Assembly (NCBI GenBank): GCA_018646705.1 | Contig: JABGUG010000011.1 | Location: 1 to 54,348 of the forward strand | DNA: 54,348 nucleotides | Source: Candidatus Parcubacteria bacterium | GTDB lineage: Bacteria; Patescibacteriota; Patescibacteriia; Magasanikbacterales; UBA922 | Direction of reading: 5' to 3' | Shown: piece after piece, positions 8,079 to 54,192 of the stretch | Numbering within the stretch: the stretch's first letter is position 1 | Layout of the letters: every line of letters begins with the position of its first letter | Notes under the pieces: model-generated | What the model saw: the letters and a program-made list of their open reading frames with translations, nothing else | Databases searched by the model: none | Told to the model about the DNA's origin: nothing | Made by a program: the position numbers and the translations under genes

Positions 8079-10028
8079 ATGGGAAAAATATTAGGAATCG
8101 ACTTAGGAACAACTAATTCATGTATGGCTATCACAGAAGGTGGGCAGCCAAAGATTTTAGAAAATAAAGAGGGAAACAGAACAACACCTTCAGTTGTTGC
8201 ACAAACTAAGACAGGGGAGATGCTTACGGGCCAGCTTGCAAAGCGTCAGGCAGTAACTAATCCTGGAAATACACTTCACTCAATAAAGCGTCTTATTGGA
8301 CGTAGACCTAGTGACGCTGAAGTTGCAGAGATTAAAAAGCATGCACCATTTGAAATTGTACCAGATGGAGATCGTGTAAAAGTAAAAATGGGAGACAAAG
8401 ATTATACACCTCAAGAAATTGCAGCCATGGTTTTGCGCAAGCTAAAAGCTGATGCAGAAGAAAAGCTTGGTGAAAAAATTGAAGAAGCAGTAATTACAGT
8501 TCCTGCATATTTTGATGATTCACAACGTCAAGCTACTAAGGATGCTGGGGAGATTGCAGGACTTAAGGTTGCTCGTATTATCAACGAACCAACAGCAGCA
8601 GCGTTTGCATATGGTTTTGATAAAAAAGACGATCAACAAATTGCAGTTTATGATCTTGGTGGTGGTACATTTGATATTTCAATTCTAGAAATTTCACATG
8701 ACGATGGAAATTCAACAGTGGAAGTAAGATCTACCAATGGTGATACACATCTTGGTGGTGATGACTTTGATCAAAAAATTATTGAATATATTTTAGAAGA
8801 ATTCAAGAAGTCAGAAGGTGTAGATCTTAGTTCAGATCCACTTTCACTTCAACGTGTAAAAGACGCTGCTGAGAAAGCAAAGATTGAACTTTCAAGTACT
8901 CCAGAGTCAGAAATAAATGAACCATTTATTACCGCTGGAGCAGAAGGTCCAAAACATTTGAACATGAAGATTACTCGCGCTAAATTAGAAGAGCTTGTAA
9001 CAGAACTTGTAGAAAAGACTATGGTTCCTGTAGAAAAAGCTATTACCGACGCAGGATTTAAGAAAGCTGATATTGATGAAGTTATTCTTGTTGGTGGTAT
9101 GACACGCATGCCTTTGGTTCAGAAAAAAGTTGAAGAATTCTTTGGTAAGAAACCAAACTCAAGTGTAAACCCAGATGAAGTAGTAGCAACTGGTGCCGCT
9201 ATTCAAGCCGGACAGCTTCAGGGAGATCTTGGAAAAGATATCTTACTTCTTGATGTAACACCTCTTTCACTTGGATTAGAAACTTTGGGAAGTGTATCTA
9301 CAAAACTTATTGAACGTAATACTACTATCCCTACAAGTAAGTCACAGGTTTTCTCAACTGCAGCTGACAATCAGCCAAGTGTAGAAATCCATGTGCTTCA
9401 AGGTGAACGTGAGATGGCTACTGACAATAAGTCTCTTGGTAGATTTATGTTGGATGGTCTTCCACCAGCACCACGTGGTGTACCACAAGTGGAAGTAACA
9501 TTTGATATTGACGCTAATGGAATTTTGAATGTTAAGGCAGTGGACAAAGCAACTAACAAAGAACAATCAATTCGTATTGAAGCGTCTAGTGGTCTTTCTG
9601 ATGATGAGATTGATAAGATGAAAAAAGAAGGTGAAGTTCATGCAGAAGAAGACAAGAAAAAGCGTGAGATGATTGATATCAAAAATACTGCTGACACTAT
9701 GATCTATACTACTGAGAAAATGATGAAAGATGTAGAAGAGAAAAAGATTGAAATTACAGAGGAAGAAAAGAAAAAAGTAGAAGAAGGCGTCGAAGCTCTT
9801 AAAAAAGCTTTGGAATCCGAAGATATGGAAGAGATTAAAAAAGTATCTGAAGAACTTACTACATCTGCTCAAGCTATTGGTATGAAAATGTACCAAAAAG
9901 AACAAGAAGACCAAAAAGCAGCCGCTGGGGAAAATCCTGAAGCAGGAGCACCTGGAGAAGAGAAAAAGCCAGATGAGGGCGAAAGCGTTGAAGGAGAAGT
10001 AGTGGATGGTGACGAGAAAAGTTCTTAG
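8079..10028 (+). CDS. dnaK: Chaperone DnaK
   Basis: [47 protein letters not shown]. Confidence 0.98.
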
Positions 10029-10091
10029 TTCTTAGTTCAGAGTTCATAGGGGGGCGGAGGTAATCTTCGCCTCTCTATGGTATAATGTAAT

Positions 10092-10178
10092 AGTTGAAAA
10101 GTTCTTAAAGTTTAAAAGCTCATAAAGAACTTAATATGTAGTAACTTTTTAACTTTATAAACTTTATAACTTTTAACT
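10092..10178. repeat. Inverted tandem-repeat array (AAAGTT(T/C)AT type), empty
   Basis: Left arm AAAAGTTCTTAAAGTTTAAAAGCTCATAAAG, right arm AACTTTTTAACTTTATAAACTTTATAACTTTTAACT. Confidence 0.7.
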
Positions 10179-18743: not shown

Positions 18744-18753
18744 GCTGTAAAAA

Positions 18754-19218
18754 GAAAATGGAAACTATAAATTTGAAATTAGGGGTTTTGTTTACGGGAG
18801 TATTGAGATTTTATTAGTCCATTTGTTTTAATATGTATGTCTTTTTTTATATTTTTTAAATTATTTTGTTCTTCTTTTGTGATAATATCTCGTTCGAGTA
18901 ACAATTCAACCCAGTGGTTTGCTTCAAGTAGAGAGGCTCTTGAATTATAATAAAATTTTATTTTATCTAAATAATGATATCGCCCATACCCTTCGGCCAG
19001 GTTTGCCCCAACTGAATCAGCAGATCTAATAAATTGATCACCTATGACTTTTTTAGTTTGCCAATTCATCTTTATGTAGACTTCCCAACTTCTCTTACTA
19101 TATTCTCGTGTTAATTTATATGCTTCTAAATCCTCTAGTTTGAAATATTCTTTCGCCATAAGGGTCAAGTTATTTATTAACTCACACCCCAATTTCTAAT
19201 TTCAATTTTCAAATTTCC
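18754..19218 (-). mobile_element. Four-helix-bundle cassette bounded by inverted GAAATTA-type heptamer arrays
   Basis: Arms 18754-18785 and 19187-19218 are reverse complements enclosing a single small gene. Confidence 0.6.
18779..19159 (-). CDS. Four helix bundle protein (TIGR02436 / 23S rRNA IVP / bAvd-like)
   Basis: LEDLEAYKL, DQFIRSADSVGANLAEGYGR, FYYNSRASLLE. Confidence 0.92.
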   Translation of the reverse strand: MAKEYFKLEDLEAYKLTREYSKRSWEVYIKMNWQTKKVIGDQFIRSADSVGANLAEGYGRYHYLDKIKFYYNSRASLLEANHWVELLLERDIITKEEQNNLKNIKKDIHIKTNGLIKSQYSRKQNP

Positions 19219-20144: not shown

Positions 20145-20155
20145 AAAATATAGAT

Positions 20156-20224
20156 TAGTAACTAGTAACTAGTAACTAGTAACTAGTTTTTACTTTCTAG
20201 TTACTAATTATTGATTACCAGTTA
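20156..20224. repeat. Inverted heptamer array (TAGTAAC)x4 with degenerate GTTACTA arm, empty
   Basis: Four exact TAGTAAC units at 20156-20183; CTAGTTA CTAATTA TTGATTA CCAGTTA at 20197-20224. Confidence 0.8.
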
Positions 20225-20893
20225 TTATTCAATTGGTATATTTACTTTGAAAGAAACATAGTCATTTTTTGTTGTGCTTGGATCATCCATCGTATATAGA
20301 ACTCCATCTATGTTTTCTTTTGTAAAAGTGAATTGTATAATATTTTTGTTTTTGCTATATGTACTAATTTCAAAATCATTTTTTCCAAGTTCTGTTTCAT
20401 AATATTCGAGAATAAAATCTTGGTCTGCAGACAAGTCAAGCCATTCTATTTCAAATGCATCTCTTTGGTCAGTAATTGGGTTTGTCATGAATGCAATAAA
20501 TTTTTCCCAATTTGTCATGCCTCTGGTTGTGACTGTTTGTGGAATATATTTGAATTCCTTATCAAGATATACTACAAATGGAGACAAGATAAGCTTTGGT
20601 AGGTAAGCTGCCAATTCTACACGTTTGCTGCGTTCTTTGCCGGATGTCTGTGTGATGCGTTCAACATTGCTTTCATCATATACAGGGATAACACTAGTGA
20701 ATTCCTCTGGCAAATCCTTGATTTCTTTTGTGCGTGGACCTATGGCAAATCGCAACAATAATAGAGATATAACAAACAAAACGGCAAAGCAACCGCATCC
20801 AGTGACACAGGTTCTTTTGACGCATGACCTTTTCTTGTTGAGCTCCTCGATTGGGGGCTCTTTTATTACTATTTTATCTATTTCTTGACGCAT
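20225..20893 (-). CDS. Hypothetical membrane-anchored protein
   Basis: Cys-rich CVTGCGC followed by a TM segment; 222 aa. Confidence 0.75.
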   Translation of the reverse strand: MRQEIDKIVIKEPPIEELNKKRSCVKRTCVTGCGCFAVLFVISLLLLRFAIGPRTKEIKDLPEEFTSVIPVYDESNVERITQTSGKERSKRVELAAYLPKLILSPFVVYLDKEFKYIPQTVTTRGMTNWEKFIAFMTNPITDQRDAFEIEWLDLSADQDFILEYYETELGKNDFEISTYSKNKNIIQFTFTKENIDGVLYTMDDPSTTKNDYVSFKVNIPIE

Positions 20894-20977
20894 ATTTTAT
20901 AAGGATATAATAGCAGAAATAGAGTTATTTGTACAGGTATTAGCTTGGTTTCACCAGGTATCTATGATAAGATAAAA

Positions 20978-21064
20978 GAAATTGGGAAATAGAAAATAGA
21001 AATTAGGTTTTTTAAGAAATATATTAATATAATCCCTAATTTCTATTTTCCAATTTCTAATTTT
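20978..21064. repeat. Inverted GAAATTA-type heptamer array, empty
   Basis: GAAATTGGGAAATAGAAAATAGAAATTAGG / CCTAATTTCTATTTTCCAATTTCTAATTTT; same family as the arms at 18754 and 19187. Confidence 0.8.
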
Positions 21065-21072
21065 ATTTTTTT

Positions 21073-22428
21073 ATGCATATACAATTTTGTGGAGCAGACA
21101 GAGAGGTTACAGGATCTTGTCATCTATTTGATACAGGAAAAAAGAAGATTCTTGTTGATTGTGGAATGTTTCAAGGGTCTAGTTTTAGTGAGAAAAAAAA
21201 TCATGATGATTTTCCATTTGATGCAAAGGAAGTCGATGTGCTCTTGGTGACACATGCGCATCTTGATCATGTGGGTAGAATACCAAAGCTTATCAAAGAT
21301 GGTTTTCAGGGTAAAATCTATATGACGAAGGGTACATGTGAGTTGGCACCTCTTATTTGGAAAGATGCTTATTACATCATGGAGTATAATAATCGTAAGT
21401 TTGGAAATCCTATTTTGTTTAGTGAGCAGGATGTTGCTGTTGCAGAATCATATTGTAAAGGAATTGATTATAATGAAAATGTTGATTTGGGGGAAGATAT
21501 TATCGCGGTTTTTAAGGAAGCAGGTCATATTTTTGGTGCAGCATTTATTGAGGTTGCTGCAGATGGAAAAAAGATTTGTTTTTCAGGAGATATTGGCAAT
21601 GAAGACGTGCCAATTCTCAAAGATACTCAAAACATGAGCGATGATGTAGATATACTTTTATGTGAATCGACTTATGGAAATCGCGTGCATGAAAGTGTTG
21701 ATGTACGTAGGGATATTATTTTGAATCTTATAAAAGAAGGGGCAAAAAAAGGTGGAACTATTATGGTACCTGCTTTTTCATTGGAAAGAACTCAAGAATT
21801 TTTGTATGAGTTAAATAAATTGAGTGAATATGATGAGACACTTCCAAATATTCCTATTTTTCTTGATAGTCCCTTGGCAATAAAAGCAACAAAGGTATAT
21901 AAAAAATATCCAGAATATTATGATGTGGAGGCTGCAAAGTTGCATGGAGCAGGGGATGATTTTCTAGATTTTCCACAACTTCAGTTGACCTACTCTAAGA
22001 GAGAATCACAAAAAATAAATCATATACCAGGACCAAAAATGGTGATCGCAGGTGCCGGAATGATGAATGGTGGTAGAATTTTACATCATGCAATTAGATA
22101 TTTATCTGATTCTAATTCCACACTTATAATTGTAGGTTATCAGGCAAATGGTACTCTTGGTCGTAAATTATATGAAGGATCAAAGCATGTGAAGGTAATG
22201 AGAGACGAAATAGATGTTCATTGTACTGTAAAGGCAATAGGTGCTTTGTCTGCTCATGGGGATCAAAAAAAATTACTTAAGTGGGTTGGTACTGGGAAGA
22301 AAAATCTAAAGGAAGTATATTGTATACATGGTGAACCTGTCGCAGCGACTGAATTGGCACATAGGATCAAAGATCAATATAAGGTAGATACATTTGTTCC
22401 AGGATATAAAGAGATTGTGGAAATATGA
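21073..22428 (+). CDS. MBL-fold beta-CASP ribonuclease
   Basis: GADREVTGSC, THAHLDHVG, AGHIFG, FSGDIG, ESTYG, SAHGD, IHGE. Confidence 0.92.
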   Translation: MHIQFCGADREVTGSCHLFDTGKKKILVDCGMFQGSSFSEKKNHDDFPFDAKEVDVLLVTHAHLDHVGRIPKLIKDGFQGKIYMTKGTCELAPLIWKDAYYIMEYNNRKFGNPILFSEQDVAVAESYCKGIDYNENVDLGEDIIAVFKEAGHIFGAAFIEVAADGKKICFSGDIGNEDVPILKDTQNMSDDVDILLCESTYGNRVHESVDVRRDIILNLIKEGAKKGGTIMVPAFSLERTQEFLYELNKLSEYDETLPNIPIFLDSPLAIKATKVYKKYPEYYDVEAAKLHGAGDDFLDFPQLQLTYSKRESQKINHIPGPKMVIAGAGMMNGGRILHHAIRYLSDSNSTLIIVGYQANGTLGRKLYEGSKHVKVMRDEIDVHCTVKAIGALSAHGDQKKLLKWVGTGKKNLKEVYCIHGEPVAATELAHRIKDQYKVDTFVPGYKEIVEI

Positions 22429-23213
22429 GGTTGGAAATTAGAAATTTGAAATTAGAAATTGGGATAATGCTTTTTGCTTTATTATTTTTTGTACCTGTCA
22501 TTGTTTGTGCAGAAGCTCTGGATACTGATGGAGATGGGCTTAGTGATGAGGATGAGCAAATGTATTATACAGATATTAATAATCCAGATACTGATGGAGA
22601 TGGGTACCCTGATGGGTTAGAAGTAAAAAATGGTTATTCACCACACAAAGGTCCTGGTGTGCAGATGCATCAAAATGATTATGATGGTGATGGACTCGGT
22701 GATTGGCTGGAAATATGGTTTAAGTCAGATATTGGAAAAATTGATACAGATGGAGATGGGCACAATGATTTTGATGAAGTCATGCGTGGGTTTAGTCCAT
22801 CAGAAAAAGATGGAGAAAAAAAGTTTAGACGTTGGATTGAAGTGGATCGCTCAAGACAAAGACTTTATTATTTTGTAAACAAAATTAAACTTTTGAATTT
22901 GGCTGTTTCAACGGGCAATCCATGGACAGAAACCCCAAAAGGGGATTTTGAAATCACAAAAATGATTCCGGAAAAAAGTTATGTTGGTGCTGATTATAAT
23001 TTGAAAGGTGTAAAGTGGAATATGTTATTTAATACGGGTGGTTATTATATTCACGGTACATATTGGCACAATGATTTTGGCATTCGAACACATTCCCATG
23101 GTTGTGTAAATCTCTCAACACAAGACGCTGGTCTTTTATATAAATATATGGATATTGGCGTGCCTATACGTATATATGGCGATACTCCGAAGAATAGGGC
23201 GGTGGAAAGTTAA
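22425..23213 (+). CDS. L,D-transpeptidase (YkuD) with Ca-binding DxDGDG repeats
   Basis: DTDGDG repeats; YYIHGTYWHN...SHGCVNL catalytic motif. True start may be a few codons downstream. Confidence 0.88.
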   Translation: MRLEIRNLKLEIGIMLFALLFFVPVIVCAEALDTDGDGLSDEDEQMYYTDINNPDTDGDGYPDGLEVKNGYSPHKGPGVQMHQNDYDGDGLGDWLEIWFKSDIGKIDTDGDGHNDFDEVMRGFSPSEKDGEKKFRRWIEVDRSRQRLYYFVNKIKLLNLAVSTGNPWTETPKGDFEITKMIPEKSYVGADYNLKGVKWNMLFNTGGYYIHGTYWHNDFGIRTHSHGCVNLSTQDAGLLYKYMDIGVPIRIYGDTPKNRAVES

Positions 23214-34177: not shown

Positions 34178-34247
34178 CATATTATCACTTAAGCACCTGA
34201 GCACTCTATTTATGGGTGTTTTTTTGTTTTTATGGTATACTTTTACT

Positions 34248-34331
34248 AGTTCATAAAGTTAAAAAGTCTATAAAGTTCATAAAGAACCAGTAGACGCCTT
34301 TTAACTTTCTAACTTTATAAACTTTTATACT
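34248..34331. repeat. Inverted AAAGTT(T/C)AT-type array, empty
   Basis: AGTTCATAAAGTTAAAAAGTCTATAAAGTTCATAAAG / CTTTTAACTTTCTAACTTTATAAACTTTTATACT. Confidence 0.75.
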
Positions 34332-34337
34332 GGTAGT

Positions 34338-34700: not shown

Positions 34701-34709
34701 TTAGATCCT

Positions 34710-34770
34710 GATATTCAGATAATCCAGATTTACAGATATTCTATCCGTAAATCTGGATTATCCGGAAATC
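34710..34770. repeat. Inverted CAGAT/ATC(C/T)G array, empty
   Basis: GATATTCAGATAATCCAGATTTACAGATA / TATCCGTAAATCTGGATTATCCGGAAATC. Confidence 0.75.
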
Positions 34771-34782
34771 CGTATAATACTT

Positions 34783-38742: not shown

Positions 38743-39207
38743 ATGAAAGAAAAAATGTCACGTGGTAAATTAATATTTCTTGTTGTATTTTTTGTTGCGG
38801 CTGGTTTCTTATTTATTTTTCAAAGAGTTTATTGGCCACACACTGTTGTTGAGCTAAAAGATCAGAAGTTGAACGTGCTTGTGGCTAAAAATATTTACCA
38901 ACAACAAAAAGGGCTTGGAGGACGTGAAAGTTTGGCTCCATATGATGGAATGCTTTTTCCTTATTCTCTGCTCGGGAAACCTACTATGGTTATGAGAGAT
39001 ATGGAGTTTTCAATTGACATTGTGTGGTTTTTGGATGGGGAAGTAGTAGATTTTGCCCCACAAGTTCCTACTGAACCGGGGAGGGCTGAATTTGAATATA
39101 TAAGATACTATCCTAGAACAGAGGCAAATTTGGTTCTAGAATTGCCAGGAGGGTGGGCAGATGAGCATAATCTAAGGATAGGGGACCGTATAGTTCATAG
39201 CCAGTAG
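38743..39207 (+). CDS. DUF192 family protein
   Basis: KGLGGRESL, DGMLF, MRDMEFSIDIVW, VLELPGG. Confidence 0.88.
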   Translation: MKEKMSRGKLIFLVVFFVAAGFLFIFQRVYWPHTVVELKDQKLNVLVAKNIYQQQKGLGGRESLAPYDGMLFPYSLLGKPTMVMRDMEFSIDIVWFLDGEVVDFAPQVPTEPGRAEFEYIRYYPRTEANLVLELPGGWADEHNLRIGDRIVHSQ

Positions 39208-39243
39208 TTCATAGCCAATACTATTGGCTAATGGCTATTGGCT
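39191..39243. repeat. Inverted TAGTTCA/TAGCCAA heptamer array, empty
   Basis: TAGTTCATAGCCAGTAGTTCATAGCCAATA / CTATTGGCTAATGGCTATTGGCT; supplies the DUF192 stop codon. Confidence 0.8.
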
Positions 39244-39250
39244 TGCGTGC

Positions 39251-39279
39251 TTGACAAAAAATACATACTTTGCTAAAAT
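39251..39279 (+). promoter_or_regulatory. sigma70 promoter of rplU
   Basis: TTGACA-17-TAAAAT with extended TG. Confidence 0.75.
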
Positions 39280-39320
39280 ATCCCCGTTTCCTATAATAAA
39301 AATATTAACTCTATATACAT

Positions 39321-39635
39321 ATGTTTGCAGTTATTGAAACTGGTGGAAAGCAATATCTCATCAAAACTGGCGATACACTAAAAGTTGAAAAGCTTGATGT
39401 GGAAGCTGGAAAAGAGGTTGTTTTCGATAAAGTACTTATGCTTGCCAAAGAAGATGGTTCTGATGTAAAAATTGGTAAACCATACCTCGAAGGTGTAAGT
39501 ATTGCTGCTACTGCTGAAGAGCAAGGTAGAAGCCGAAAGATTCGTGTAGTGAAGTTTAAACGTAAGGTGCGTTATAAACGTGTAATAGGGCATAGACAAG
39601 CCTTTACTAAGGTAAAAGTCAAAGAAGTAAAATAA
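39321..39635 (+). CDS. rplU: 50S ribosomal protein L21
   Basis: MFAVIETGGKQY, IGKPYLEG, GHRQAFT. Confidence 0.98.
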   Translation: MFAVIETGGKQYLIKTGDTLKVEKLDVEAGKEVVFDKVLMLAKEDGSDVKIGKPYLEGVSIAATAEEQGRSRKIRVVKFKRKVRYKRVIGHRQAFTKVKVKEVK

Positions 39636-39646
39636 ACATTTCAAAC

Positions 39647-39676
39647 AAAGACTCACCTTATCAGGTGAGTTTTTTT
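39647..39676 (+). terminator. rplU terminator
   Basis: ACTCACCT-TATC-AGGTGAGT followed by a T-run. Confidence 0.8.
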
Positions 39677-39711
39677 GTTGACATTTTTTTCATAATAAAA
39701 TAAGATGATAT

Positions 39712-39943
39712 GGTCGACTGGCTCTGGCGGATGCTGATAGAGGGTTAAAGTTGCTCTTCTAGGAGAGTTCCTGATATAGGGTTCGTTCTTAGGGGCTTGT
39801 AAAAGTTCTAGAGTGGTCGTCCGGCCGGCTTTGGATGTTGCGTCTAGCCTAAGATATTTCGGTATCACAGGTGTGCAGACGGATGTCCAAGGTCGGTCCT
39901 TCTCTCTCTATTTCCACCTCTTCTGGTTAAGAGGTGTTTTTTT
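39712..39943 (+). ncRNA. Candidate structured ncRNA A (~230 nt, two rod domains)
   Basis: Promoter TTGACA (39678)-17-TAAGAT (39701); 17-bp stem 39823-39839/39882-39898 with 6 G-U pairs; UUCG loop; terminator 39915-39943. Confidence 0.7.
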
Positions 39944-39992
39944 ATACACAGACTCTATTGACAACGAGGGTATTTTGAAGTATGCTGATGCG

Positions 39993-40432
39993 TCAGCTCA
40001 TTTTTAAACTAACCGTGGGTCTCCATACAAGTTGCTAGTGGATATCGTTGTTAAACGATGTCTTGATTGGGGAATCATAAAGCGCTAGTGCGTGGACTCA
40101 CGGTTTAGATACGCTAAGATGATCGACCGGGGTTTCTTCTCCCAGCCCTATCTTCTTTTGCCTTACATTGCCCCTCGCGGGGTCGTCACAGGCTGTTGCT
40201 CCCCACGAGCGAAAGAAGATTGCCATGACGGTGCCTGCCCCTTTTTCGGGGACCGCCGTTGTCCGGTAGGACGAGTCATCGATGCCGCGCAAGCGCTCAC
40301 AACGTCCAGGGTCTCCACCCGTTTTTCAATACCCCCGCCTGGAGACTTACGTTGTGACGCTTGTGCGGCACTTCCTCTCTGCCCATAAAATTTATGTATA
40401 GAGAAGAAAAATCCACCGTTATGGTGGATTTT
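39993..40432 (+). ncRNA. Candidate structured ncRNA B (~430 nt)
   Basis: Promoter TTGACA (39958)-17-TATGCT (39981); stems 40011-21/40095-105, 40150-61/40209-20, 40283-317/40340-70; ends at terminator 40408-40432. Confidence 0.65.
40408..40432. terminator. Bidirectional terminator
   Basis: AAAATCCACCG-TTA-TGGTGGATTTT abutting the recR stop. Confidence 0.8.
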
Positions 40433-41030
40433 AGTTTTGGGTTCTATTTTTTAGTGCACTTCCAAGTGTAATCTCATCTGCATATTGCAGATCGCTTCCC
40501 ATGGGTAGTCCACGTGCTAGACGTGTGACTTTTATTTCTGGCTTTAGTTTTTTGACTTGACGTTCGAGATACATCATTGTAGTTTCACCATTTAGATCTG
40601 GGTTGAGTGCGAGAATTATCTCATCAACTTTATTTTTTTGTATACGATTCATTAGCTCATTAATTTTTAGAAATCGTGCGATTCCTTCATCACCTGGCTT
40701 TAGTGTTCCGCGCAAGATGTGGTATTGCCCAGTATATTCACCAGTTTTTTCTATTGTTTCTCGATCTTGAGGTTGTGATACTACGCAAATTGTTTTTGGA
40801 TTTCGTTTTGGATCGTTGCAAAAATTGCATGGTGACGCATCAGAAAAATCCCAGCACACTTCACAACTTTTGATCTGGTCGATCATGTTTTTGAGTGCGA
40901 GGGTTATTTCAGCAGTGTCTTTCTTGCCACTACGCAATAGATAAAACACGAACCGTTCTGCGGTTCGTGGCCCCACCGTAGGGAGCTTTGAAAAAGCTTT
41001 TATTAGATTTTCTATTGGTTCTGCGTACAT
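40431..41030 (-). CDS. recR: Recombination mediator RecR
   Basis: LPTVGPRTAER, C4 zinc finger, Toprim, RLARGLPMGSDLQYADEITL. Confidence 0.97.
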   Translation of the reverse strand: MYAEPIENLIKAFSKLPTVGPRTAERFVFYLLRSGKKDTAEITLALKNMIDQIKSCEVCWDFSDASPCNFCNDPKRNPKTICVVSQPQDRETIEKTGEYTGQYHILRGTLKPGDEGIARFLKINELMNRIQKNKVDEIILALNPDLNGETTMMYLERQVKKLKPEIKVTRLARGLPMGSDLQYADEITLGSALKNRTQN

Positions 41031-41034
41031 ATAT

Positions 41035-41486
41035 TAGTTCATAGCCAATAGTTCATAGCCAATAGTGACCTAGTCTTTAGCGATACAGAGATTCCCTATA
41101 CCTATAGAGCATTCTAAGTACTTCATCCAATAGACTATCTAGCTTTGAACATTGGTTTGTAGTAATAAATTCAAGTTGTTTTGATATTATGATTTGTGTT
41201 TCAAGTTCTGTGGCAGACCCAAATGATATGTTTACAAATTGTGCATTCTCTTTTTTATTTTTTCTTGCATATCCTTCAGCAATGTTTGATGCAATGGATA
41301 CACTGCATCTCCTCATTTGACTTACAAGGCCAAATTTTTCTTCATTTGGAAATGTAGATGTCAATAAATATACTTCTTTAATTAAATTGATAGATTTTTG
41401 CCAAACTATCAAATCTTTGTAAGTTTCCATAAGATGTAATTAATAATAACCACACCCTATGAACTATTGGCTACTGGCTATGAACT
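41035..41486 (-). mobile_element. Four-helix-bundle cassette bounded by inverted TAGTTCA/TAGCCAA arrays, between ybaB and recR
   Basis: Arms 41035-41066 and 41457-41486 enclose a single small gene. Confidence 0.65.
41077..41430 (-). CDS. Four helix bundle protein (TIGR02436 / 23S rRNA IVP family)
   Basis: YKDLIVWQKS, FPNEEKFGLVSQMRRCSVSIASNIAEG, GSATELETQ. Confidence 0.95.
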   Translation of the reverse strand: METYKDLIVWQKSINLIKEVYLLTSTFPNEEKFGLVSQMRRCSVSIASNIAEGYARKNKKENAQFVNISFGSATELETQIIISKQLEFITTNQCSKLDSLLDEVLRMLYRYRESLYR

Positions 41487-41487
41487 C

Positions 41488-41784
41488 TTAAGACATTCCA
41501 GGTATATTTGGCATGCCACCCATTTCTTTCATCTTCATTGCCATGATACGTTGCATTTTTTTGAGGGCATCCTTGTGCGCATCTATAATTGCACTTTGTA
41601 ATTTTACTTTTTTGTCTGGACTCATGAGATCATCGTCAATGACGATGTCAGTTACTTCCAAGTTTCCATTCATGGTGAGTTCTACACCATTGGATTTTAC
41701 TGTGACACTTTCTCCCGCAAGAGCATCTTGCATTGTTTTTGCTTGGTCACGCATGTCTTTGAACTGTTTTAGTTTGTTGAACAT
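41488..41784 (-). CDS. ybaB: YbaB/EbfC nucleoid-associated protein
   Basis: QAKTMQDAL, VELTMNGNLEVTDIVID; next to recR. Confidence 0.9.
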   Translation of the reverse strand: MFNKLKQFKDMRDQAKTMQDALAGESVTVKSNGVELTMNGNLEVTDIVIDDDLMSPDKKVKLQSAIIDAHKDALKKMQRIMAMKMKEMGGMPNIPGMS

Positions 41785-41826
41785 ATTCTAAAGGTTTACT
41801 GCTTGTCTAGTGACAGGCTTTTATAA

Positions 41827-43272
41827 TTAAAATTTTGGAACGTTTTGTTTTTGTGGTTGAGCTTGTTCTGGGACTGGAGATTTTGGTAGAGGTGCTTCTA
41901 AGTTTGAATCTAGACTACGGAAACTCGCACGTTCAGCATCAAAGAATACTCTTACCACTCCTGTTGGACCGTTTCTGTGTTTTGCAATATGAATTTCACC
42001 AATACGTTGTTCATCTGGTGGAATGTCTTCTGGCCTATAATTTCTATCAGCAGATTTACGATAAATAAACATAACAACATCAGCATCTTGCTCAATACTA
42101 CCAGAATCTCGCAAATGTGACAACTTTGGAATAGCTGGTTTTGTTTGTTCTACAGCACGAGATAACTGGGACAAAGCAAGAACAGGAACATTGAGTTCAC
42201 GAGCAATACCTTTTAAGTTTCTACTCATCTCAGCAACTTCTTGTACACGATTGTCACTGTTTCTCTTGCTGTGTGAGTTCATGAGCTGCAAGTAGTCGAT
42301 GATAATCATATCAAGTCCGTGCTCAGCTTGAAGTCGGCGTGCTTTTGTTCGGATTTGCATTACATTACTATTTGCATTGTCATCTATAAATATTTTTGAT
42401 TCTGAAAGAACACCCATCGCATGTCCAATACGAGGAAAGTCATCACTGTTTGGATTGTCAGATAAGTTTCCTGTTCTCATCTTCCACAAGTCAATTCCTG
42501 CTTCAGCACAGAGTAGGCGATCTACCAGCTGTTCTTTACTCATCTCGAGTGAGAACAATCCAATAGACATCTTGCCCCTCACGGCAGCGTGTCGTGCAAA
42601 ATCAAGCGCAAGGGATGTCTTACCTACAGAAGGACGGGCTGCAATAATCACCAAGTCTGATTTTTGGAATCCTGCCAAAATATTGTCTAATTGTTTGAAA
42701 CCACTTGGGATTCCACGTAGCTTTCCTTTTTCTCTATGTAATTCATCAATACGTTCAAATGTTCCACTAAGTACATTTTTGATAGGCGTGAAACTTTGTT
42801 TCATGTGAGTTTGTGTCACACCAAAGATAGATTGCTGTGCTTCATCTAAAATCTGATCTACATTTTCTGCGCTTTCATTGTATCCAAGTTGTGAAATTTC
42901 ATGAGCAGATTGCAAAAGTCGTCGAAGAGTTGATTTGCGACGTACAATAGTTGCGTATTTTTTTATGTGTGACGATGTTGGAACTGAGTTTGATAGTTCT
43001 GCCAAATATGTTCTTCCGCCACTTTTTTCAAGTAATTTCTTTTCGTCCATTCTGTTTGACATGGTGAGTACGTCAATTGGTTCATTTTTGTTGTATAGCT
43101 CATGCATTGTCTCAAATATATTTTGATGAGCTTTTTTGTAAAAATCTTCTATATCAACACCGTCAGCAATCTTTATCATCGCATCTTTATCAAGCAAAAT
43201 AGACCCCAGAAGGGACTTTTCAGCCTCCAAGTTTTGTGGAGGTATCTTCTCTAATTCAGTAACATCAGGCAT
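41827..43272 (-). CDS. dnaB: Replicative DNA helicase DnaB
   Basis: PPQNLEAE, AARPSVGKT, IIDYLQL, LSQLSR, LRDSGSIEQDAD, KHRNGPTG. Confidence 0.98.
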   Translation of the reverse strand: MPDVTELEKIPPQNLEAEKSLLGSILLDKDAMIKIADGVDIEDFYKKAHQNIFETMHELYNKNEPIDVLTMSNRMDEKKLLEKSGGRTYLAELSNSVPTSSHIKKYATIVRRKSTLRRLLQSAHEISQLGYNESAENVDQILDEAQQSIFGVTQTHMKQSFTPIKNVLSGTFERIDELHREKGKLRGIPSGFKQLDNILAGFQKSDLVIIAARPSVGKTSLALDFARHAAVRGKMSIGLFSLEMSKEQLVDRLLCAEAGIDLWKMRTGNLSDNPNSDDFPRIGHAMGVLSESKIFIDDNANSNVMQIRTKARRLQAEHGLDMIIIDYLQLMNSHSKRNSDNRVQEVAEMSRNLKGIARELNVPVLALSQLSRAVEQTKPAIPKLSHLRDSGSIEQDADVVMFIYRKSADRNYRPEDIPPDEQRIGEIHIAKHRNGPTGVVRVFFDAERASFRSLDSNLEAPLPKSPVPEQAQPQKQNVPKF

Positions 43273-43314
43273 AACGTAGTTTGAAGATTTATGGAAGTTT
43301 AATTCTTTGAAACG

Positions 43315-43393
43315 TAGTTCATAGCCAGTAGTTCATAGCCAGTAGAATATTGAAATATATTCCTATGAACTATTGGCTATTGGCCATGAACTA
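43315..43393. repeat. Inverted TAGTTCA/TAGCCAR heptamer array, empty
   Basis: Arms 43315-43345 and 43363-43393 with a 17-nt spacer; near-identical to the arms of the 41035-41486 cassette. Confidence 0.85.
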
Positions 43394-43564
43394 GTTGCTG
43401 TATCTTACCTCACAACCCTCAAATGATCAACCCGTGTTTTTAGGTAATATGTGTGCAACATGTGGAGACTGTGTTGACAAAAGTGGATAATTTTGGTTGT
43501 ATAGTGTATAAGAAATAACCGTTCGAAGGGTCGAGCGGTTTACGTCCACGTTGAGGGGGAGTCA

Positions 43565-43885
43565 ATGAGCAGGAAGACTGGTCCGAAGAAGAAGTCAGGT
43601 CGCATTCGGTTCGCCGAAGCTGGGGCGAAAGGCACTGACGCTGGGATCGTGAATCGCATCATCGTCCCGAAAGATCACGAGGTCAGCTCTACGCAGGTCT
43701 GGAAGCTGGCGGTCCAGAACAAGGCCGCTGCCGGTGGGAAGATCCTCATCTCTGTCGGGGATGAGGAAGCGCGTCTCATCTCCCACGATGACCTGTCGGA
43801 CGATCTCTGGCTGAAGAAGAAGGCTGCTCGCGCTGCGAAGCGCGGGCGTTCCCGTTGGGCCCACATCGGGGTCACCACCTCCTAG
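43565..43885 (+). CDS. GC-rich hypothetical basic protein
   Basis: 106 aa, SD-like GAGGGGGAG at 43553-43561, GC-ending codons, upstream TTGACA and 5' hairpin. Confidence 0.65.
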   Translation: MSRKTGPKKKSGRIRFAEAGAKGTDAGIVNRIIVPKDHEVSSTQVWKLAVQNKAAAGGKILISVGDEEARLISHDDLSDDLWLKKKAARAAKRGRSRWAHIGVTTS

Positions 43886-44071
43886 ACAAGGGAGTACCGA
43901 CGATGAAGGCTTACCTTTGTTTCGGCCGGCGGATACCGCCCGGCATGGATCTCAGGGCGTGTACGAACCTCGTTCGCACCGCCCGCATTTTTACCAAGTT
44001 TTGGTAGAAGTGCGGGGAGGAAGATCATGTAGTTACATGGTGTGCGAGCGGGGTTTTATGTTATACTGATT

Positions 44072-44156
44072 TAGCCAAAAGCCAATAGTTCGGAGCCAAT
44101 AATGTGCAGTGTGTGGTTTGCATTTCTGTTGGCTATGAACTATTGGCTATGAACTA
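44072..44156. repeat. Inverted TAGTTCA/TAGCCAA array, empty
   Basis: TAGCCAAAAGCCAATAGTTCGGAGCCAATA / TGTTGGCTATGAACTATTGGCTATGAACTA. Confidence 0.8.
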
Positions 44157-44160
44157 CTAT

Positions 44161-45330
44161 ATGAAAATCTGTATTATCAACAATCTATATCCTCCATATG
44201 CTCGTGGTGGTGCGGAACAGGTAGTGAAGCGCACGGTCGAAGGACTTTTGAAAGAGGGAAATGAAGTGGTGCTTATTACCAGTACTCCAGATGAAGAAGG
44301 AGTGGAGGAGCAAAAGAATTTGAAGATTTACCGCACACGTCCGCGTAATATATTTTTTTATACTCAAGCACACAAGCATGATGCCTTTTCTCGATTTTTG
44401 TGGCATGTGATTGATATGTTTAATTTTTCTGTAAGCAAAGAAGTAAAGAGAATTTTGACATGGGAAAAACCAGATATCGTACACACGCATAATCTTATGG
44501 GGCTTAGTTTTCTTATTCCTAGTACTATTCGCTCACTTGGTATTCGTCATGTGCATACGGTACACGATGTGCAGCTTGTCGAACCTAGTGGCATAATCCT
44601 AAAGACAAAAGAAAATTCATTGCGCTATACAGGTGTATTAACACAAATGTATACATGGGTAATGAAAAAACTTCTTGGTTCGCCAGAAGTCGTAATTTCT
44701 CCATCACAGTTTTTACTTGATTTTTATAAGACACGTGGATTTTTTGAAAAATCAAACACAACTCTTTTGCGTAATCCACTTACTCTTACATTTGAAAGAT
44801 CAAAGTCTGAGCGAAAAGATAAAGAATTTAACTTTTTGTATCTAGGGCAAGTAGAAGAACACAAAGGTGTGTTCTTGCTTCTCGAAGCTTTCAAAAATAT
44901 TAAGAACACAAAATTACATATTGCGGGAGATGGTTCAAAGCTTGGTGATTTAAAAGAACTTACAAAAGAAAATAACAATGTCACTTATTACGGACGTGTA
45001 GAGCGAGATAAACTTCCAGAATTATTTAGTAATATGGATGTTACAGTTGTTCCATCACTTTGTTATGAAAATTCTCCAACTGTGATTTTTGAAAGTTTGT
45101 ATTTTGGTGTTCCAGTTCTTGCAAGTCGCATTGAAGGGATTGCTGAGCTTATTGAAGAAGGTGAAAATGGTTTTACATTTGAAGCAGGAGACACTATGTC
45201 TTTGCAAGAAAAATTAGAGTGGTGTGTAGAACACAGAATTGATATTGAAAAAATGAGTATAAAAATTCCGACCACTGGTGGATCGGAAGGGGAATACATT
45301 GGAAAACTTGTAGAGTTGTATAATGGTTAA
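44161..45330 (+). CDS. Glycosyltransferase, GT-B family 4
   Basis: YPPYARGGAE, PDIVHTHN, HTVHD, KGV, PSLCYENSPTVIFES. Confidence 0.93.
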   Translation: MKICIINNLYPPYARGGAEQVVKRTVEGLLKEGNEVVLITSTPDEEGVEEQKNLKIYRTRPRNIFFYTQAHKHDAFSRFLWHVIDMFNFSVSKEVKRILTWEKPDIVHTHNLMGLSFLIPSTIRSLGIRHVHTVHDVQLVEPSGIILKTKENSLRYTGVLTQMYTWVMKKLLGSPEVVISPSQFLLDFYKTRGFFEKSNTTLLRNPLTLTFERSKSERKDKEFNFLYLGQVEEHKGVFLLLEAFKNIKNTKLHIAGDGSKLGDLKELTKENNNVTYYGRVERDKLPELFSNMDVTVVPSLCYENSPTVIFESLYFGVPVLASRIEGIAELIEEGENGFTFEAGDTMSLQEKLEWCVEHRIDIEKMSIKIPTTGGSEGEYIGKLVELYNG

Positions 45331-53171: not shown

Positions 53172-54173
53172 ATGAAATTACTTGTTACGGGAGGAGCAGG
53201 ATTTATCGGGTCACATTTTATTCGCTATTGGTTGAAGCGTCACCCTGAGGACGAGATTACCAATCTCGATCTTTTAACATATGCAGGGAATTTGGAAAAT
53301 TTAAAAGATGTACAAGATAATAAAAATTATAAGTTTGTAAAAGGAGATATATGTGATAGAGATTTTGTTTTTGATCTTGTAAGAGATGCAGACTTGGTTG
53401 TTCACTTTGCAGCTGAATCTCACGTAGATCGTTCTATTATAGATCCAAGCGCATTTATTCGTACAAATGTTTTAGGAACACAAACTCTGCTTGATGCAGT
53501 AAAAGAATTTGGAAAACGTATTCACCATGTTTCAACTGATGAGGTGTTTGGCGCACTTAAGCCAGAGGATCCTGCATTTGATGAAAATACACCATATGAT
53601 CCACGTAGCCCATATTCTGCAAGTAAGGCAGCGTCCGATCATCTAGTGCGAGCATATTATCATACATACGGAATCAAGATGACGATTTCCAATTGTTCAA
53701 ACAATTATGGATCATACATGTTTCCAGAAAAAATGCTCCCATTATTTATTTCAAATCTAATGGAAGGAAAAAAAGTTCCAGTGTATGGAGATGGACAACA
53801 AGTTCGTGATTGGATTCATGTTTTGGATCATGCACGTGGAATTGATTTTGTTTTGCAAAAAGGAAAGATAGGGGAGACATATTGCCTTGGAGGAAATAGT
53901 GAATTGGCAAATTTAGATGTTACGAAGACTCTTCTCAAACTCATGGACAAAGATGAAAGTTCTATAGAGTTTGTAAAAGATCGCCCTGGTCACGATAGGC
54001 GATATGCAATTGATTTTTCAAAAGCAAAAAATGAACTTGGTTGGGAACCGGAAATGAAGTTTGAAGACGGATTGAAAGAAATGATTGATTGGTATAAGCA
54101 AAATCAAGATTGGGTAGAAAGGTGCAAGAGTGGGGAATATCAAAAATATTATAATAAACAATATGGTTCATAG
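53172..54173 (+). CDS. rfbB: dTDP-glucose 4,6-dehydratase
   Basis: VTGGAGFIGS, LTYAGN, FAAESHVDRSI, STDEV, YSASK, DRPGHDRRY. Confidence 0.97.
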   Translation: MKLLVTGGAGFIGSHFIRYWLKRHPEDEITNLDLLTYAGNLENLKDVQDNKNYKFVKGDICDRDFVFDLVRDADLVVHFAAESHVDRSIIDPSAFIRTNVLGTQTLLDAVKEFGKRIHHVSTDEVFGALKPEDPAFDENTPYDPRSPYSASKAASDHLVRAYYHTYGIKMTISNCSNNYGSYMFPEKMLPLFISNLMEGKKVPVYGDGQQVRDWIHVLDHARGIDFVLQKGKIGETYCLGGNSELANLDVTKTLLKLMDKDESSIEFVKDRPGHDRRYAIDFSKAKNELGWEPEMKFEDGLKEMIDWYKQNQDWVERCKSGEYQKYYNKQYGS

Positions 54174-54192
54174 GAACCTAAGAACTAAATAT

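Follow-up and report, generated by a model that had tools for sequence, protein, structure and literature searches.

A PF05635 gene between inverted heptamer arrays, in the design of an ORF-bearing rRNA intervening sequence, lies between ybaB and recR in a Parcubacteria genome

Closest described systems and the ybaB-recR cassette

The PF05635/TIGR02436 proteins, a very large family of which two structures have been solved, have no assigned function, and the family name, '23S rRNA intervening-sequence protein' (S23p), comes from a chance discovery inside rRNA. A 23S rRNA intervening sequence (IVS) bearing an open reading frame (ORF) was reportedly described in Leptospira by Ralph and McClelland in 1993, and Lin and co-workers are said to have found five-membered rings of relatives in 2006. 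Tandem heptanucleotide repeats, the short tandemly repeated repetitive (STRR) sequences, were reportedly recognised in heterocystous cyanobacteria by Mazel and co-workers in 1990. Dispersed short hairpins, with one protein-coding 'master' flanked by them, are also known from repetitive extragenic palindromic (REP) elements with their RAYT transposases and from miniature inverted-repeat transposable elements (MITEs). In this work, we analysed a stretch of 54,348 nucleotides (the window; contig JABGUG010000011.1 of the Candidatus Parcubacteria assembly GCA_018646705.1), in which a gene of the PF05635 family, enclosed by inverted arrays of heptamers, lies between the host genes ybaB and recR. The gene with its two arms is referred to as the filled cassette, and copies of the arms elsewhere as gene-less.

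According to the available text of the report on Coxiella burnetii (PMC4990558), the 23S rRNA IVS of this bacterium carries an S23p ORF, a 28-bp terminal inverted-repeat stem and two to three tandem GACAGAT heptamers before the ORF; RNase III cleaves within the stem, and the authors cite the idea that the ORF might serve mobility. Accessible sections of other reports place 18 genes of the PF05635 family within cas operons (PMC3936711) and further members in rRNA inserts of candidate phyla radiation (CPR) bacteria (bioRxiv 10.1101/2024.02.27.582315). In the pentamer of Avd, the accessory protein of diversity-generating retroelements (DGRs), all five protomers touch one RNA stem-loop, as stated in the available part of bioRxiv 10.1101/2023.10.23.563531. 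The accessible text on the GIY-YIG Ssn nucleases (PMC11893778) describes genes with their own NTS/SRM hairpin repeats on both sides, many gene-less copies and a repeat variant per homologue.

The window corresponds to contig C45 of a genome (G000) of 1.04 Mb with 36% G+C, 64 contigs and 97% completeness, and the sequencing runs holding the cassette locus are seawater metagenomes, with no RNA run listed among them. The features at the locus are as follows.

41077..41430, minus strand: cargo gene, 117 aa, PF05635/TIGR02436 four-helix-bundle protein (S23p)
41457..41487, minus strand: 5' arm, upstream on the gene strand, with the units GAGTTCA, TAGCCAG, TAGCCAA, TAGTTCA and TAG, abutting the ybaB stop codon (41488-41490)
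41450..41457, minus strand: motif GGGTGTGG between the 5' arm and the ATG
41035..41065, minus strand: 3' arm, downstream on the gene strand, CTATTGGCTATGAACTATTGGCTATGAACTA, followed by 4 nt and the recR start codon (41028-41030)
41488..41784, minus strand: ybaB/ebfC, host gene upstream of the insert
40431..41030, minus strand: recR, host gene downstream of the insert
41827-43272, minus strand: dnaB

On the plus strand, the two arms read TAGTTCATAGCCAATAGTTCATAGCCAATAG (41035-41065) and CTATGAACTATTGGCTACTGGCTATGAACTC (41457-41487) and enclose the ORF, so that the arms built from TAGTTCA and TAGCCA(A/G), which an earlier note on this DNA had placed around the gene, were borne out by the sequence. 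In gene-strand order, the ybaB stop codon is followed by the 5' arm, GGGTGTGG, 22 A+T-rich bases, the ORF, 11 bases, CTATTGGCTATGAACTATTGGCTATGAACTA, 4 bases and the recR start codon. The insert, comprising the gene and both arms, measures ~455 bp and sits flush in the ybaB-recR gap.

The cargo matches PF05635 with an E-value of 1.7e-39 (134.8 bits against the Pfam cut-off of 33.8) and TIGR02436 with 4.4e-37. Its Pfam bAvd match is marginal (41.2 bits, the cut-off being 40), and the Avd equivalog model of NCBIfam, NF033474, gives 37.9 bits (E 1.7e-9), which is under its cut-off of 80; the earlier description of the cargo as an Avd-related four-helix-bundle protein is thus supported by PF05635 and, narrowly, by bAvd. 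The residues Q38, R41, S45, N49, E52 and E75, invariant in 22 relatives, are all present. The protein is basic (isoelectric point [pI] 8.5), as are all 22 aligned relatives (median pI 9.2), and the nearest solved structure, 2gsc (E 6.6e-20), is an entry with five chains, as is the PDB relative 2rld. The cassette encodes no transposase, its cargo matching PF05635 and bAvd only in Pfam, and a search of the 97%-complete genome for a reverse transcriptase (PF00078) was negative, consistent with the earlier view of a transposase-free cassette. A reading as a defence system was rejected, as PADLOC returned no match.

The cassette shares with the rRNA IVSs the S23p protein, the terminal inverted repeats that close the ORF, the heptamers in the 5' part (GACAGAT two to three times in Coxiella), a length of ~430-470 nt, a position inside an essential transcription unit and a sporadic distribution suggesting horizontal movement. 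It differs in location, which is rRNA helix 45 there and an intergenic junction of protein genes here; the available portion of the IVS literature is also without gene-less dispersed heptamer copies, a paralogue-specific unit or a cross-phylum rule. As in the Ssn/SRM arrangement, to the extent of the accessible text, a small single-domain gene is flanked by its own dispersed hairpin repeat, with gene-less copies and a variant per homologue, whereas a nuclease domain is missing from the cargo here, and tandem heptamers make up the arms in place of a single palindrome; four-helix-bundle proteins have 0 occurrences in the Ssn paper (PMC11893778). Avd belongs to the same superfamily and is likewise a basic pentameric four-helix-bundle ring (bioRxiv 10.1101/2023.10.23.563531 and PMC10053308, in their available parts), but no reverse transcriptase accompanies the gene here and the NCBIfam cut-off for Avd is not reached. 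Unlike REP/RAYT elements and MITEs, the cassette is without an HUH or DDE transposase. No publication stating a general rule of gene plus heptamer arms, gene-less derivatives or one unit per lineage was found in a search that covered subscription journals and supplements poorly.

Of 31 related genomes, 30 yielded a recR gene, and in every one of these 30 it lies directly beside ybaB, confirming that the two genes are normally adjacent. The gap between them is 6-13 nt in about half of these genomes; a PF05635 gene fills it in 3 of the 30, and 27 are without one. In the sister species of the same genus (G001, recR 94% identical), the gap consists of 6 nt (CCTGGAATGAACTAATCTATGTAC) with no arm and no hairpin, which means that the gene is either there with its arms or missing along with them. 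In this species, ybaB ends in bases (ATGAACTA) that equal the outermost unit of the arm in the window, which may reflect an element preferring unit-like targets or a coincidence of a few bases. Two genomes of other genera hold PF05635 proteins at the junction, one 60% identical to the window protein and flanked by TAGTTCn arms (G013), the other 43% identical with GAAGTTnn arms (G014). Gene-less hairpins or arrays of other families occur at ybaB-recR in six further genera (L034, L037, L043, L044, L051 and L060), and the junction is therefore a hot spot or preferred site. Empty ybaB-recR alleles retaining arms, which the earlier note had expected, were not found: the sister species has the 6-nt junction, and contigs of four other marine runs (X5, X7, X9 and X11) cover both cassette junctions in the filled form only, with identical sequence, although contigs drop rare variants and thus leave the absence of an empty allele undemonstrated. 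No joints across the cassette were seen in these contigs, the listed joints being inside dnaB with short sides.

Generality of the gene and its heptamer arms

To define how widely the arrangement occurs, we compared 130 nt on each side of the ORF at 29 loci from related genomes and at a further 80, the best among 573 relatives found when all bacteria were sampled with one genome per species. With a threshold Smith-Waterman score of at least 14, inverted arms were detected at 55 of the 93 scorable family ORFs, from many phyla, and at 0 of 78 neighbouring ORFs of the same loci. The period of the arms is 7 in 42 of the 55 pairs, 8 in 10 and 9 in 2, and periodicity of at least 0.7 was observed in 40 of the 55 pairs, compared with 1.2% of random 25-mers. 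The units vary by locus (for example CAGTGGT, CAAGTAC, TCGTATG, GGGATCA and GGTGAGG), with GGTGAGG, CAGTGGT and GGGATCA representing G+C-rich units in other phyla. Among 42 consensus units, 16 contain TAG, where 7.3 would be expected. The family is patchy among the relatives, being present in 15 of the 31 genomes with 0-12 copies each.

The gene also stands between inverted heptamer arrays (AGTAGGG, TCAGGAG, GGGTGTA, GTGACAG) in six of eight cyanobacterial plasmid loci, whose neighbours include ribonucleotide reductase subunits, cas6, cas4 and ABC-transporter genes; on two Nostoc punctiforme plasmids, the cassette unit recurs elsewhere without the gene. Plasmid matches of the protein are mostly from heterocystous cyanobacteria (31 records, 10 of them Nostoc), with L149-L156 belonging to Nostoc, Calothrix, Anabaena and Trichormus, and the flanking arrays include AGTAGGG repeated eight times. 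Like the STRR sequences, these are short tandem 7-mers in intergenic DNA, and they may be the STRR repeats known from heterocystous cyanobacteria. None of the papers listed for STRR links these repeats to the PF05635 family. In a separate observation, a run of ~15-20 tandem TAAGTNN heptamers on one strand (G016:C22:10625-10758) is longer by far than any cassette arm, which suggests that arrays can expand by slippage.

The orientation of the cassettes is strongly polar. On the sense strand, the 5' arm has more G than C in 45 cassettes and less in 8, and of the 53 cassettes that have a gene within 350 nt on each side, 42 run in the direction of both neighbours and only 1 runs against both. No promoter-like site for the cargo gene was called on the minus strand at 41431-41487 of the window. 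The co-orientation, the G-rich sense 5' arm and the absence of a called promoter point to a constraint that is strand-specific and to transcription with the host operon. Of the 55 5' arms, 24 contain stop triplets in every reading frame. When the 471-nt sense RNA is folded computationally, the 3' arm pairs with the 5' arm, leaving the whole ORF in the loop (minimum free energy -116 kcal/mol, z -5.0), and an RNase III gene is present in the genome of the window. An RNA stem under selection is plausible by analogy with the rRNA IVSs, although the mismatches between the arms (see below) lend it no support.

The protein and its repeat unit vary together. Across 38 cassettes (703 pairs), arm 6-mers are shared by 5% of the pairs with less than 35% protein identity and by 28% of those above 55%, and the observed correlation between protein identity and arm sharing was reached in 0 of 2000 permutations, which upholds the link between protein clade and repeat sequence that the earlier note had anticipated. 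Among the relatives, those nearest to the window protein (L061 with 65% identity, L063 and L099) come with TAGCCA(A/C/T) units. Array abundance also follows the gene: the two-unit word TAGTTCATAGCCA has 26 matches in the genome of the window and 2-6 in five relatives; GTATTSA in two units has 14 matches in its holder G024 and 1-6 elsewhere; TACGTTN in two units has 30 in its holder G023 and 1-5 elsewhere; and for TAAGTNN in three units, the counts are 29 in G016, which holds the gene, 10 in G001, the sister species, and 0 in three others. All four counted array families are thus commonest in the genome with the cognate gene.

Gene-less copies, other repeat-armed genes and features of the window

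TAGTTCA-type arrays without the gene lie at the following places in the window.

39191..39243: gene-less hairpin, overlapping the stop codon (39205-39207) of the DUF192 gene (38743-39207) and lying just before the rplU promoter-like site
43315..43393: gene-less hairpin with a 19-nt loop, upstream of dnaB
44072..44156: gene-less hairpin ending 7 nt before the glycosyltransferase start (44164), with GTGTGGTT in its loop
10017..10051, plus strand: four TAGTTCn heptamers in a one-sided array where the gene 8079-10028 ends, resembling the arms of the G013 ybaB-recR cassette

The three gene-less neighbours proposed previously were confirmed as hairpins of the TAGTTCA/TAGCCAA units. Folded as single-stranded DNA, 39191-39243, 43315-43393 and 44072-44156 give -12, -19.5 and -19.8 kcal/mol, with z values against shuffles of -2.9, -5.7 and -5.8, respectively, and the GTGTGGTT in the loop of the last one is also found in the leader of the filled cassette. 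The arms of filled and gene-less copies are near-identical in three repeat pairs (95%, 91% and 96%). With up to two mismatches, TAGTTCATAGCCA occurs 14 times in the window, compared with a shuffle mean of 1.42, and 0 of 100 shuffles reached 14. In the whole genome, the 26 matches with at most one mismatch lie on 9 contigs and represent ~13 loci, namely 1 filled cassette, 6 gene-less hairpins and 6 one-sided arrays; blastn-short with the arm returned 10 loci, against 0 for the reversed arm. Two expectations of the earlier note held in part: four of the ~13 loci cluster within 5 kb and the remainder are dispersed over other contigs, and of the two degenerate relatives, the run at 10017-10051 is real, whereas 54164-54186 is a weak small hairpin (-7 kcal/mol). 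Measured against what characterises a gene with its own hairpin, the flanking repeat also occurs gene-less (1 filled, ~12 gene-less) and its abundance follows the gene, but the cargo is neither a nuclease nor a transposase.

In the sister species, the place of the 39191-39243 hairpin holds a different sequence, that of 43315-43393 upstream of dnaB a one-sided degenerate TAGTTCA/TAGCCAT array, and that of 44072-44156 a hairpin of another, GIY-YIG-type family. None of the four TAGTTCA/TAGCCAA loci within 39100-44300 is among the 15 terminator-like sites called there, a T-run being absent.

The genome of the window holds seven PF05635 genes, and every complete copy is enclosed by inverted arms with a sequence peculiar to it, the arm types of the other paralogues being AAAGTT-type, GGTAAAA, AAGATTA, AAATTAG/AAATTTG and AATTTAC-type. 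One of these is the second filled cassette of the window.

18779..19159, minus strand: PF05635 gene, 126 aa (E 6.5e-22)
~18749-18792 and 19188-19218: its arms, of AAATTAG/AAATTTG units

Hairpins of short tandem units (TAGTAAC, AAATTAG/AAATAG, AAAGTTnn) are located at 20150-20233, 20963-21079, 22422-22465, 10096-10178 and 34244-34335 of the window; their units are of the families that form the arms of other four-helix-bundle paralogues in G000. The motif GGGTGTG(G/A) stands beside the 5' arm, after or before it, in four of the six complete cassettes of the genome (window 41450-41457 and ~19165-19175, C46 and C16), the proteins of which are only ~20-35% identical. The motif is not general: of 29 cassettes from G000 and related genomes, 5 have it, and its reading as an extended -10 promoter element was rejected on that ground.

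Five nuclease genes of the genome also lie within their own inverted repeats, of 18-30 nt.

C15:7048-7418, C21:16232-16664 and C43:5681-6045: GIY-YIG cassettes
C35:16142-16616: DUF559 cassette
C64:16255-16728: PDDEXK_3 cassette

Their arms are plain palindromes without periodicity, and in this genome only the four-helix-bundle genes have arms of tandem heptamers. The idea that each small cargo gene is paired with its own repeat family applies to all seven paralogues, but it is true of the GIY-YIG, DUF559 and PDDEXK_3 genes as well. Gene-less copies of some nuclease-cassette repeats occur elsewhere, for example a PDDEXK_3-type arm at 34705-34775 of the window. An ORF at C31:782-1123, taken by eye as RAYT-like, was dismissed because Pfam gave no match.

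Around the hairpins, two G+C-rich (46-58%) non-coding stretches between rplU and recR, 39690-39950 and 39960-40430, contain TTGACA-17-TAnnnT promoter-like sites (39678 and 39958) and terminator-like hairpins (39915-39936 and 40408-40432). Both are conserved in the sister species with many substitutions and were negative in Rfam and transfer-messenger RNA (tmRNA) searches; they are candidate small RNAs. A G+C-rich islet of up to 63% at 43400-44065, between two TAGTTCA/TAGCCAA hairpins, includes a basic 106-aa ORF (43565-43885) without a match in Pfam, NCBIfam or PADLOC; in the sister species, the promoter-like part and a ~110-nt 3' part of the islet are conserved and the middle is shorter and different. 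Over 39150-44200, no credible Rfam match, tRNA or tmRNA was detected, a Phe-leader match (E 0.24) being spurious, and no rRNA is present in the window.

Interpretation, alternatives and meaning

The earlier note regarded the locus as a candidate for an undescribed system. This was not borne out, as an ORF with terminal inverted repeats and tandem heptamers is the design of the Coxiella 23S rRNA IVS in the available text of PMC4990558; what is observed here is the ORF-bearing IVS design outside rRNA, flush between ybaB and recR. We lean, with slightly better than even confidence, towards a selfish, operon-tolerated cassette whose ring-forming protein would bind its own heptamer hairpin, a mechanism favoured because of analogy and genomic association. 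In such a mechanism, the cassette would be transcribed with the host operon, and its arms would pair in the transcript into a stem around the ORF, which host RNase III could cut as in rRNA IVSs, so that operons would tolerate the insert. The protein, which is basic and has relatives solved as pentamer rings, would bind the hairpin of its own heptamers in the manner of the Avd pentamer on its stem-loop, and this binding would favour the retention or spread of DNA carrying its own unit, with the gene-less hairpins and one-sided arrays as presumed non-autonomous copies. A more specific proposal, which we regard as rather doubtful and put forward tentatively, is that PF05635 rings are sequence-specific readers of tandem heptamers, with about one protomer per 7-nt unit and each with its own unit, that propagate a transposase-free, operon-safe element together with its gene-less hairpin derivatives.

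Several results weigh against the selfish-cassette mechanism. Of the mismatches between the arms, 20 are G.U-compatible when read on the sense strand and 21 are A.C, a balance without any bias specific to RNA, and the arm complementarity therefore looks DNA-level, leaving a selected RNA stem unsupported by the mismatch test. If gene and arms are simply copied or inherited together, the clade-unit and abundance links would be expected even without protein-DNA recognition; they show linkage, not recognition. No arms at the score threshold were found at 38 of the 93 family ORFs. Three A+T-rich arm families of the genome yielded gene-less copies no more clearly than a reversed-sequence control (8 vs 10, 3 vs 3 and 11 vs 7), and a fourth (C11) gave 0 vs 0 with an extracted query arm that was too short, so gene-less copies for every paralogue are firm only for some families. 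The contigs of the four marine runs show no sign of recent movement.

Some of these points would fit an alternative that we consider unlikely, in which the hairpins spread or persist alone, in the way of REP elements or MITEs, and the gene moves by homologous recombination or gene conversion through the ~30-bp arms, with the protein uninvolved. The near-identity of filled and gene-less arms, the unbiased arm mismatches, the TAGTTCA-type array upstream of dnaB in the sister species, which has no cognate gene at ybaB-recR, and the other-family hairpins at that junction in six genera are all in its favour. The empty junction of the sister species, however, has no hairpin to land in, and arrays are abundant only alongside the cognate gene in four of four families tested. 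Tandem-heptamer arms are moreover specific to PF05635, those of the GIY-YIG, DUF559 and PDDEXK_3 genes of the same genome being non-periodic, and the strict polarity (42 co-oriented with both neighbours vs 1 opposite) also speaks against independent movement of the gene into standing hairpins.

Somewhat less probable still is a host function, with the hairpins acting as operon punctuation (RNA processing, stability or termination) and the protein as a domesticated RNA-binding regulator that is not selfish. The strong co-orientation with host genes would suit such a role, as would the arms flush with stop and start codons, the host stop codons inside arrays (39205-39207 and ybaB of G013), the stops in three frames in 24 of 55 5' arms and the fixation of the filled allele in the four marine runs examined. 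Against it stand the patchiness of the family (15 of 31 relatives, 0-12 copies), the 27 of 30 ybaB-recR junctions without a family gene, about half of the 30 being only 6-13 nt, the different units in sister lineages, and the hairpins themselves, which are without a T-run and were not called as intrinsic terminators.

That the cargo is a DGR accessory protein is very improbable: the weak model matches (bAvd 41.2 bits against 40; NF033474 E 1.7e-9) are its support, while the NF033474 score of 37.9 bits falls short of the required 80, no template/variable repeat pair was noticed near the gene (no search being aimed at one), the seven paralogues each lie in their own hairpin, and the reading was rejected as PF00078 was not found in the genome, which is 97% complete. 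Chance slippage in A+T-rich intergenic DNA around a small gene, which the 36% G+C of the genome and the difficulty of separating low-complexity arm families from background might suggest, is scarcely credible, since random slippage, named by the earlier note as what would undo its case, is contradicted by the shuffle control (TAGTTCATAGCCA 14 times against 1.42 expected in the window), the neighbour-ORF control (55 of 93 vs 0 of 78), the dominant period of 7 and the G+C-rich units of other phyla.

For the family, the comparison indicates a general package, of which the rRNA IVS is a single instance: a gene and inverted heptamer arrays, found inside operons in many phyla. The 7-nt unit in it is particular to each gene lineage, and arrays without the gene are abundant only alongside the cognate gene. 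This package offers an origin for dispersed heptamer repeats and turns the 'function unknown' of PF05635 into a specific question, namely whether the ring binds its own heptamers. If the arms let the host cut the element from transcripts, the cassette would be a natural self-insulating insert in essential operons. If the ring reads the heptamers, a very large family would gain a function, and the heptamer repeats of bacteria, with the tandem heptanucleotide repeats of cyanobacteria among them, would gain a protein that partners them.

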